Source of the DNA: Escherichia coli
GTDB lineage: Bacteria > Pseudomonadota > Gammaproteobacteria > Enterobacterales > Enterobacteriaceae
DNA length: 64,000 nucleotides
Assembly (NCBI RefSeq): GCF_965641715.1
Contig: NZ_OZ282453.1
Strand: one strand, 5' to 3'
Program-made: the position numbers
Shown here: positions 11,428 through 14,400 of the stretch, piece after piece
Numbering within the stretch: the first letter of the stretch is position 1
Layout: each line of letters opens with the position of its first letter

Positions 11428-14400
11428 TTAAATTTTCTACCGCGTACTGCACTTCACCCGCAGTTACCGCTTCGCACTCACATACCAGGCTACGGTGCAG
11501 ACGGCCTTCGCTCAGCCAGGCAGGCGTACGATCGCCATGACGATAAACCGCAGAACCGCGCAGCGGGGCAGGCAGGGAGATGACTTTACGCAAGGTGACT
11601 TCAGCGGGTTCCTGTGAACCAGGAAGTGCCAGATCGGCGGTCGTACAGGGGCGCGTGTTGCCCAGTTTGCGGCATACGGCGTCGGTAGCCCATTCAGCCA
11701 TCAGCCGATAGGTCATCAGTTTGCCACCGGTGATGGTGATAAACCCGTCCAGACCATCGCGTTCAGCATGGTCGAGCAGCACGATGCCACGGCTGACGTT
11801 ACGTCCGCTCGGGTCGTCATCGCTGGCAACCAGCGGGCGTACGCCAGAATAGGCCCGCAAAATGCGCGTTTTCGCCATCACGGGGGCCAGTTTTTCCCCT
11901 TCACGCAGCAGAATATCAACTTCTTCTGCCGTCACTCGATTATCGTCAATCTCATTGTAATCAATACGTAAAGAGGTGGTGCCAATCAGCGAAATGGTAT
12001 CGCCAGGCACCAGAATATCGGCGTCGGAAGGTTTACGGCAGCGGTTGATCACATGCTGGTTAATGCGGTGATCCATGATCAGTAGCGATCCTTTCGCCGG
12101 GAACATGCGGATGCGCAGATCGGCATATTCGGCAATGTGTTGCCCCCAGATCCCAGCGGCATTAACCACGACAGGTGCATGAAGGGCCTGAGTTTCGCCG
12201 GTGAGATGGTTACGTACACGAACACCGCACACCGTCGCGCCTTCACGAATCAGCCCCGTGACTTCATGAGCGGTAAGGATAACGGCACCGTGTTCTTTGG
12301 CATCCAGCATGTTTGCTGCGGTCAGACGAAATGGATCAACGGTGCCATCCGGAACTTTCACCGCGCCAATCAGTGCCGGGTTAACGGCAGGTTCGATAAT
12401 GCACGCTTGCTGCGGGTCTATAGCTTCTGCGCTGATCCCTGCTTCTTCGCAGGCGCGAATAAAAGTGGCCTGGAAGGAGAGGTCATCTTCCGGCAGGGTG
12501 ATAAACAGGCCGTTGGTTGGTTCAACGCAGTGACGTGCAATGCGTTTCAGGATCTGGTTTTCACTAATGCATTCGCGGGCCGATTCCGCATCGGTTACCG
12601 CATAGCGCGCACCGCTGTGCAGCAGGCCGTGGTTACGGCCGGTGGCACCGGTTGCGATGTCGTGGCGCTCAACCAAAATCACGCGCAGCCCGCGCAGGGC
12701 ACAGTCGCGGGCAATTCCGGCTCCCGTTGCGCCGCCGCCAATGATAATCACGTCACTTGATTGCGAGTCGCGAGTTTTCATTGTTATCCCTCTGAAGTTC
12801 GTTTTTTACCATTTAGCCATAGTAAAAACATGAATTGTTTGATTTCGCGCATATTCGCTCATGATTCGAAAGTGAAACGTGATTTCATGCGTCATTTTGA
12901 ACATTTTGTAAATCTTATTTAATAATGTGTGCGGCAATTCACATTTAATTTATGAATGTTTTCTTAACATCGCGGCAACTCAAGAAACGGCAGGTTCTCT
13001 CACTGAATCAGGCTGTTAATCATAAATAAGACCACGGGCCACGGAGGCTTTCAATGTTGAGTATTTTTAAACCAGCGCCACACAAAGCGCGCTTACCTGC
13101 CGCGGAGATCGATCCGACTTATCGTCGATTGCGCTGGCAAATTTTCCTGGGGATATTCTTTGGCTATGCTGCTTACTATTTGGTTCGTAAGAACTTTGCG
13201 CTCGCTATGCCTTACCTGGTGGAGCAGGGATTCTCACGCGGTGATTTAGGTTTTGCGCTTTCTGGGATCTCGATCGCCTATGGATTTTCGAAATTCATCA
13301 TGGGTTCGGTATCGGATCGCTCGAATCCGCGCGTTTTCCTGCCCGCAGGTTTGATTCTGGCGGCGGCAGTGATGTTGTTTATGGGCTTTGTGCCATGGGC
13401 GACGTCGAGCATTGCGGTGATGTTTGTACTGTTGTTCCTCTGCGGTTGGTTCCAGGGGATGGGGTGGCCGCCGTGTGGTCGTACTATGGTGCACTGGTGG
13501 TCGCAGAAAGAACGTGGCGGCATTGTGTCAGTGTGGAACTGTGCGCACAACGTCGGTGGTGGTATTCCGCCGCTGCTGTTCCTGCTGGGGATGGCCTGGT
13601 TCAATGACTGGCACGCGGCGCTCTATATGCCCGCTTTCTGCGCCATTCTGGTGGCATTATTCGCCTTTGCGATGATGCGCGATACCCCGCAATCCTGTGG
13701 CTTGCCGCCGATCGAAGAGTACAAAAATGATTATCCGGACGACTATAACGAAAAAGCGGAACAGGAGCTGACCGCGAAGCAAATCTTCATGCAGTACGTG
13801 CTGCCGAACAAACTGTTGTGGTACATCGCCATCGCCAACGTGTTCGTTTATCTGCTGCGTTACGGCATCCTCGACTGGTCACCGACTTATCTGAAAGAGG
13901 TTAAGCATTTCGCGCTGGATAAATCCTCCTGGGCTTACTTCTTCTATGAGTATGCGGGCATTCCGGGCACTCTGCTGTGTGGCTGGATGTCGGATAAAGT
14001 TTTCCGTGGTAACCGTGGGGCAACTGGCGTCTTCTTTATGACTCTGGTGACTATCGCCACCATCATTTACTGGATGAACCCGGCAGGCAACCCAACTGTC
14101 GATATGATTTGTATGATTGTTATCGGCTTCCTGATCTACGGCCCTGTGATGCTGATCGGTCTGCATGCGCTGGAACTGGCACCGAAAAAAGCGGCAGGAA
14201 CGGCAGCGGGCTTTACCGGTCTGTTTGGTTACCTGGGCGGTTCGGTGGCGGCGAGCGCGATTGTTGGCTATACCGTGGACTTCTTCGGCTGGGATGGCGG
14301 CTTTATGGTAATGATTGGCGGCAGCATTCTGGCGGTTATCTTGTTGATTGTTGTGATGATTGGCGAAAAACGTCGCCATCAGGAATTACTGCAAAAACGC

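Follow-up and report, generated by a model that had tools for sequence, protein, structure and literature searches.

Which regulators bind between two operons that diverge from one short stretch of DNA, and which of the two promoters does each of them serve? The question is raised by the spacer between glpTQ and glpACB at positions 12782..13053 of a 64,000-nucleotide stretch of Escherichia coli DNA (assembly GCF_965641715.1, contig NZ_OZ282453.1), referred to below as the window. An original prediction, made by eye, had flagged a palindrome in this spacer as a CRP site and expected operators of GlpR to overlap it. We conclude with high confidence that the divergent control region of E. coli glpTQ and glpACB occupies 12782..13053, that glpT has a class II CRP-dependent promoter there and that the predicted GlpR operators lie on the glpA side. 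The region is already known and heavily annotated (RegulonDB 8.5 holds 21 sites for 5 transcription factors at glpTQ); our check confirms that annotation and adds nothing new to it. Its value lies in this confirmation and in a corrected placement of the repressor sites. It is established that the region governs glycerol-3-phosphate uptake and anaerobic respiration and, via GlpT, the entry of fosfomycin. Since GlpT lets fosfomycin in, mutations in cyaA, crp, glpR or the promoter alter fosfomycin susceptibility, which is likewise established.

The CRP site of the glpT promoter

12928..12943, no strand: CRP site 1, TGTGC-GGCAAT-TCACA, identified by sequence and published footprint; class II activator site of glpT (centre at -41.5), at -90.5 for glpA
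12965..12970, plus strand: glpT -10 hexamer TAACAT (PMC2760140 supplement, as cTTAACAT)
12977, plus strand: glpT transcription start (A), 77 nt 5' of the ATG, mapped by 5' rapid amplification of cDNA ends (5'-RACE) and 454 sequencing (PMC2760140); the transcript begins Aactcaagaaacggcaggttc

The palindrome picked out in the original prediction is the CRP activator site that has been footprinted at the glpT promoter. It stands at 12928..12943 as had been claimed and agrees with TGTGA-N6-TCACA at 9 of the 10 core positions, with TTT in the 3' flank in addition. Upstream of glpT in enterohaemorrhagic E. coli (EHEC), CRP-cyclic AMP (CRP-cAMP) protects 25 bp from DNase I, from -30 to -52 and over the -35 box, and the protected DNA contains AATGTGTGCGGCAATTCACATT (Kurabayashi et al. 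2017, PMC5352689). This 22-mer is identical to window positions 12924..12945. The match and the footprinted site thus coincide, which is the alignment by which the original prediction was to stand or fall. In the same study, mutants in crp or cyaA gave no detectable activity of the glpT promoter (PMC5352689). The 5' sequence of the glpT transcript, Aactcaagaaacgg, and the -10 box cTTAACAT are known from 5'-RACE with 454 sequencing (PMC2760140). With the start at 12977, the centre of the CRP core (12935.5) falls at -41.5, the class II position.

For conservation, glpA loci were fetched from 80 species, and the spacers of 25 genera were aligned; the cross-genus values given here refer to this alignment. 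The arms of CRP site 1 are 96% conserved, compared with 65% for its 6-bp spacer and 67% for the whole region, the pattern of constrained arms around a free spacer that a dimer site has. In E. coli and the most closely related Escherichia, this 6-bp spacer reads GGCAAT, GGTAAT or GTTAAT, with the arms unchanged. The A at -11 and the T at -7 of the glpT -10 box are retained in 25 of 25 genera. The glpT/glpA pair is among the top cross-species CRP predictions in PhyloScan, and the glpTQ-glpABC spacer is a target of CRP in genomic SELEX (systematic evolution of ligands by exponential enrichment; Shimada 2011, PMC3105977).

In our reading a CRP-cAMP dimer on 12928..12943 substitutes for a usable -35 element and recruits RNA polymerase to glpT. 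Because the glpT promoter is CRP-dependent, glpT, and with it fosfomycin uptake, requires cAMP.

Further observations touch this promoter in other genomes. One differential RNA sequencing (dRNA-seq) study of Salmonella SL1344 reports an extra glpT start at 2387789 (approximately window 12946), 33 nt 5' of the canonical one and at the 3' edge of the CRP site; the Salmonella CRP spacer, TGTAAT, could be the -10 box of this upstream start, and the E. coli spacer is GGCAAT. In the chicken isolate E. coli VTB97379v (NZ_CP178682.1) a deletion that begins just past the CRP site (approximately 12951 onward) extends into glpT. Lost with it are the -10 box, start site, leader and N-terminus, and the annotation calls glpT a pseudogene; a lesion of this type would be expected to lower fosfomycin uptake.

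The glpA promoter

12845 (approximate), minus strand: probable glpA transcription start (A), by orthology to the Salmonella SL1344 dRNA-seq start
12851..12856, minus strand: glpA -10 hexamer GAATAT (GATTAT in Salmonella), by position relative to the orthologous start
12788..12792, minus strand: glpA Shine-Dalgarno sequence GAGGG, identified by sequence; GAGG is kept in most genera
12878..12893, no strand: candidate CRP site 2, CGTGA-TTTCAT-GCGTC, weak; centre at -40.5 for glpA and -91.5 for glpT

In Salmonella SL1344 dRNA-seq gives a single primary glpA start with a 63-nt leader, equal in two studies, downstream of AAGGCGCACGAAATCACGTTTCATTTTCGAATAGTGAGCGATTATGCGCGA (PMC3963941 supplement). 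The Salmonella +1 aligns to window 12845, 132 bp from the glpT start at 12977. A separation of 132 bp is reportedly also that of Larson et al. 1992. The A at -11 and the T at -7 of the glpA -10 hexamer are retained in only 14 of 25 genera, and a scan with the sigma-70 consensus found no promoter in the glpA direction. The sole match of that scan, TTGAAC-18-AATAAT on the plus strand at 12897..12926, is backed by no mapped start and was rejected.

The spacer was described as holding multiple CRP sites with unassigned roles (Shimada 2011, PMC3105977), whereas a single CRP-protected region was seen in the EHEC footprint (Kurabayashi 2017, PMC5352689). We therefore grade 12878..12893 as a probable, weak second CRP site; it matches 8 of the 10 core positions in Klebsiella (TGTGA-N6-GCTCA). 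The glpA promoter would then carry a weak CRP-like site at -40.5 and CRP site 1 at -90.5.

GlpR operator-like sites lie on the glpA side

12834..12853, no strand: best GlpR operator-like 20-mer, ATTGTTTGATTTCGCGCATA, 5 mismatches (15/20); glpA -8..+12; cross-genus mean 15.8/20
12794..12813, no strand: putative GlpR operator-like 20-mer, GAAGTTCGTTTTTTACCATT, 6 mismatches (14/20); glpA +33..+52; cross-genus mean 12.9/20, maximum 16
12886..12905, no strand: weak putative GlpR operator-like 20-mer, CATGCGTCATTTTGAACATT, 7 mismatches (13/20); glpT -91..-72; cross-genus mean 11.3

As the 20-bp palindromic consensus of the GlpR operator we took WATGTTCGWTAWCGAACATW, which proved sound on K-12: a copy without mismatches spans -10..+10 of the mapped glpD start, and a series of tandem copies is present at glpFK. 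The scan for GlpR, CRP and FNR sites that had been suggested as a check returned the CRP site at 12928..12943 and the three GlpR candidates listed above; it returned no FNR site, since nothing in the spacer matches TTGAT-N4-ATCAA with up to 2 mismatches. At least two GlpR matches with up to 6 mismatches are expected in 272 bp of this composition with P = 0.015. Within 12834..12853 TGTTTGAT is invariant across genera, and CGAAC and AATG are conserved within 12794..12813. Of the predicted sites only 12834..12853 is convincing alone; by consensus counting the others are individually indistinguishable from chance.

Counted from the CRP core, the candidates are found 23 to 134 bp further upstream, where the glpA promoter and leader are, and the best of them keep their position across genera. 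The expected overlap with the CRP site was not borne out, as the consensus scan detects no GlpR site there or at the glpT core promoter. A GlpR operator-like site does overlap the core promoter of glpA (12834..12853, at -8..+12) but not that of glpT, for which the nearest credible site ends at -72. We suggest that GlpR, which responds to glycerol-3-phosphate, binds a run of degenerate 20-bp operators that would extend roughly over 12794..12905. Since these operators cover the -10 box, the start and the leader of glpA, GlpR would block glpA directly and would have to reach glpT from a distance. Action at a distance on glpTQ is named in the title of Yang et al. 1997, and DNA looping may be part of how GlpR works here. 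Operators inside glpA were also reportedly described by Larson et al. 1992. The sole internal candidate, 12388..12407 (6 mismatches), was rejected, as it shows no excess synonymous-site conservation (z about -0.5, 28 glpA orthologues). Deletion of glpR lowers the minimum inhibitory concentration of fosfomycin from 64 to 4 mg/L (PMC9686493).

The FNR motif and alternative readings

12839..12852, no strand: FNR-like motif TTGAT-TTCG-CGCAT, published (PMC5352689), inside the GlpR-like 12834..12853
12810..12819, minus strand: block TGGCTAAATG, glpA leader +27..+36, near-invariant (mean conservation 0.96 in 25 genera)

The footprint of FNR(D154A) covers about 70 bp and includes TTGAT-TTCG-CGCAT (PMC5352689). 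This motif agrees with FNR at 7 of 10 positions in the window. Its centre, 12845.5, is at the probable glpA start and about 131.5 bp upstream of the glpT start. No TTGAT-N4-ATCAA is found near -41.5 of glpA, where a class II FNR site would be. The motif coincides with the best GlpR operator-like site and with the probable glpA start, which rules it out as a standard class II activator site of that gene. Both operons were classed as FNR-activated by Myers 2013.

Downstream in the glpA leader, TGGCTAAATG is flanked in most genera by the inverted repeat CCAYA-N7-TRTGG (12810..12836). The block is more conserved than any nearby transcription-factor half-site and is left unexplained by the consensus sequences of GlpR, CRP and FNR. 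Together with the repeat it could be the site of an unassigned regulator, or the core of a second anaerobic glpA promoter with the FNR motif at -41.5, although we regard this reading as unlikely.

Could the palindrome at 12928..12943 be a chance match in AT-rich intergenic DNA, with no regulatory role? Its motif is indeed no rarer than expected: the 64-kb window has 3 matches to TGTGA-N6-TCACA with up to 1 mismatch where 1.85 are expected, and 26 of 100 shuffles reached at least 3 (scaled to 272 bp, the expectation is about 0.008). However, the identical sequence is footprinted by CRP-cAMP and mutants in crp or cyaA lose glpT expression (PMC5352689), the site sits exactly at -41.5 from a mapped start, and its arms are conserved across 25 genera where its spacer is not. 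We thus hold the site to be real because of its position, its conservation and the published footprint, not because of motif rarity, and a chance match can for practical purposes be dismissed. The same DNA might also, or instead, be a GlpR operator at 12926..12945, through which GlpR would repress glpT in direct competition with CRP. TGTGTGCGGCAATTCACATT fits 13 of the 20 consensus positions there (cross-genus mean 12.8). This score arises because the outer ATGT and ACAT are common to both palindromes, so that any CRP site will gain a good score; the TTCG and CGAA at the centre of a GlpR site are absent, better GlpR matches lie elsewhere, and the action at a distance named for glpTQ in the title of Yang et al. 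1997 does not fit such competition. We consider this reading quite improbable.

The third alternative concerns glpA, whose main promoter could be an FNR-dependent class II promoter that starts near 12804. FNR would then bind 12839..12852, with its centre at -41.5, and TGGCTAAATG would be the extended -10 region. The FNR motif is the best conserved FNR-like site of the spacer (cross-genus mean 7.6/10, maximum 9), 12794..12853 is the most conserved part of the spacer, and this geometry would set the GlpR operators at -49..-30 and -9..+11. The hexamers that it would use are poor, however, since CTAAAT and TAAATG each lack the A at -11 or the T at -7, and no FNR peak was called at the spacer by chromatin immunoprecipitation (ChIP) in wild-type E. 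coli. In the two Salmonella dRNA-seq studies, moreover, the only primary glpA start is that orthologous to 12845, with its 63-nt leader. A start near 12804 is set aside because the Salmonella start maps to 12845, and we judge an FNR-dependent class II promoter for glpA to be unlikely.

Against our own reading, with a class II CRP promoter for glpT and GlpR on the glpA side, stand the following points. The FNR-like motif, centred on the glpA start, misfits simple activation of glpA, and the only FNR ChIP peak seen at the spacer comes from a strain without hns and stpA (Myers 2013 supplement). The glpA start takes its probable E. coli position wholly from Salmonella orthology. CRP site 2 matches only 5 of the 10 core positions in E. 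coli, and the EHEC footprint showed one CRP region (PMC5352689). Counting matches to the GlpR consensus is unspecific (18 matches with up to 6 mismatches in 64 kb, where random sequence gives 12 +/- 3.4), and the operator boundaries given here are predictions.

Boundaries and other features of the spacer

11153..12781, minus strand: glpA (open reading frame (ORF) list; NCBIfam GlpA equivalog, 1106 bits; RefSeq annotation), followed by glpB and glpC
13054..14412, plus strand: glpT coding sequence, glycerol-3-phosphate:phosphate antiporter (ORF list; NCBIfam equivalog, 976 bits), followed by glpQ
13006..13018, plus strand: IHF consensus match AATCAGGCTGTTA, glpT leader +30..+42, an exact WATCARNNNNTTR
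13038..13048, plus strand: glpT ribosome-binding block GCCACGGAGGC, conserved, with GGAGG at 13043..13047
12907..12926, no strand: conserved block, glpT -70..-51; TGTCATAnTTCTGTAACAAT in most genera, diverged in Escherichia (TGTAAATCTTATTTAATAAT)

The 272-bp spacer between divergent operons had been delimited exactly, with glpA on the minus and glpT on the plus strand (ORF list, NCBIfam). All five products, GlpA, GlpB, GlpC, GlpT and GlpQ, score above their NCBIfam equivalog cut-offs, and a 901-bp query spanning the spacer matches 5419 of the 5426 complete E. coli genomes at 95-100% identity, with glpT and glpA as the RefSeq annotation at every match. A divergent glpT-glpA pair with a 249-276 bp spacer is found in most Enterobacteriaceae. 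At nine glpA loci, of Kluyvera, Pseudocitrobacter and Klebsiella spallanzanii, no glpT N-terminus lies within 2 kb upstream; thus the divergent arrangement is not universal in the family.

Of the 'AT-rich repeats' that had been reported, the composition holds (GC content falls to 31-38%, from about 55% in the flanking genes) and the repeats do not: a search of the spacer gave an 11-nt direct repeat in two copies and three short inverted repeats, none of them beyond what AT-rich DNA yields by chance. Rfam models gave no credible match in 12300..13500 (top match E = 0.79). No site or start-site entry for glpA or glpT is present in the supplements of Kim 2012, Conway 2014, Federowicz 2014 and Park 2013.

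In the glpT leader the ribosome-binding block has a mean conservation of 0.96 compared with 0.42 for the remainder. The exact IHF consensus WATCARNNNNTTR occurs 7 times in 64 kb where 3.9 matches are expected; a role of IHF in GlpR looping was reportedly described by Yang et al. 1997. In the glpA leader RNAalifold found no conserved RNA structure (empty consensus, energy 0.0). An E. coli-specific 10-bp hairpin, UUUUUACUAU-GGCUAA-AUGGUAAAAA at 12803..12828 (-7.7 kcal/mol, with the 65-nt leader segment folded alone), is not kept in other genera. The first ~15 codons of glpA (12737..12781) show raised third-position conservation (z about 2.2, 28 orthologues).

The block at 12907..12926 has a mean conservation of 0.85 across genera, and E. 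coli deviates from it at several positions. Its match to the GlpR consensus is weak (10/20 in the window, mean 11.1). Strains of E. coli differ here as well, the CFT073 allele having changes clustered at 12897, 12907-12911 and 12915. The block resembles an ArcA-like direct repeat of TGTnA with an 11-bp period; no ArcA ChIP entry was found for glpA or glpT. ChIP in E. coli CFT073 gave an NsrR peak at the glpT/glpA spacer, and glpA is down under nitric oxide stress (PMC5320621). The predicted NsrR half-sites, AACATGAATTG and ACGTTTCACTT, lie at 12826..12836 and 12870..12880 (PMC5320621).

Comparison with known systems

The closest named system is glpTQ-glpACB of K-12 MG1655, the same locus with the same gene order and a 272-bp spacer, identical to the window at 270 of 272 bases. 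The bases shared with K-12 include CRP site 1, the -10 box and start site, and every operator-like site. The window differs from K-12 at 12863 (G for A), at -18 of glpA, in the promoter spacer and inside the GlpR-like region, and at 13050 (T for A), in the gap that separates the Shine-Dalgarno sequence of glpT from its ATG, 4 nt 5' of the latter. The G at 12863 is a minority allele (exact 41-mer in 67 complete E. coli genomes versus 4553 for the K-12 A); the T at 13050 is found in 1622 genomes. Neither substitution touches a core motif position.

Class II CRP promoters, such as galP1, have their CRP dimer centred at -41.5, where it overlaps the -35 element or takes its place. The glpT promoter resembles them in its CRP site at -41.5 and in being inactive without cAMP-CRP (PMC5352689). 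Unlike class II promoters generally, its CRP site lies also at about -90.5 of a divergent promoter, and repression would come from operators upstream instead of over the core promoter.

The CRP-protected 22-mer and TTGAT-TTCG-CGCAT of the EHEC glpT promoter are both unchanged in the window (PMC5352689). The numbering of the FNR motif differs by about 2 bp, -123 to -136 in that study and -125 to -138 when counted from 12977. FNR was interpreted there as an enhancer of glpT, whereas we see the motif also over the probable glpA start.

The operators of glpD and glpFK share the consensus WATGTTCGWTAWCGAACATW with the predicted GlpR sites on the glpA side. At glpD the perfect copy lies over the start, and at glpFK successive operators are about 20 bp apart. 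The predicted sites on the glpA side, each having from 5 to 7 mismatches, are much more degenerate than either.

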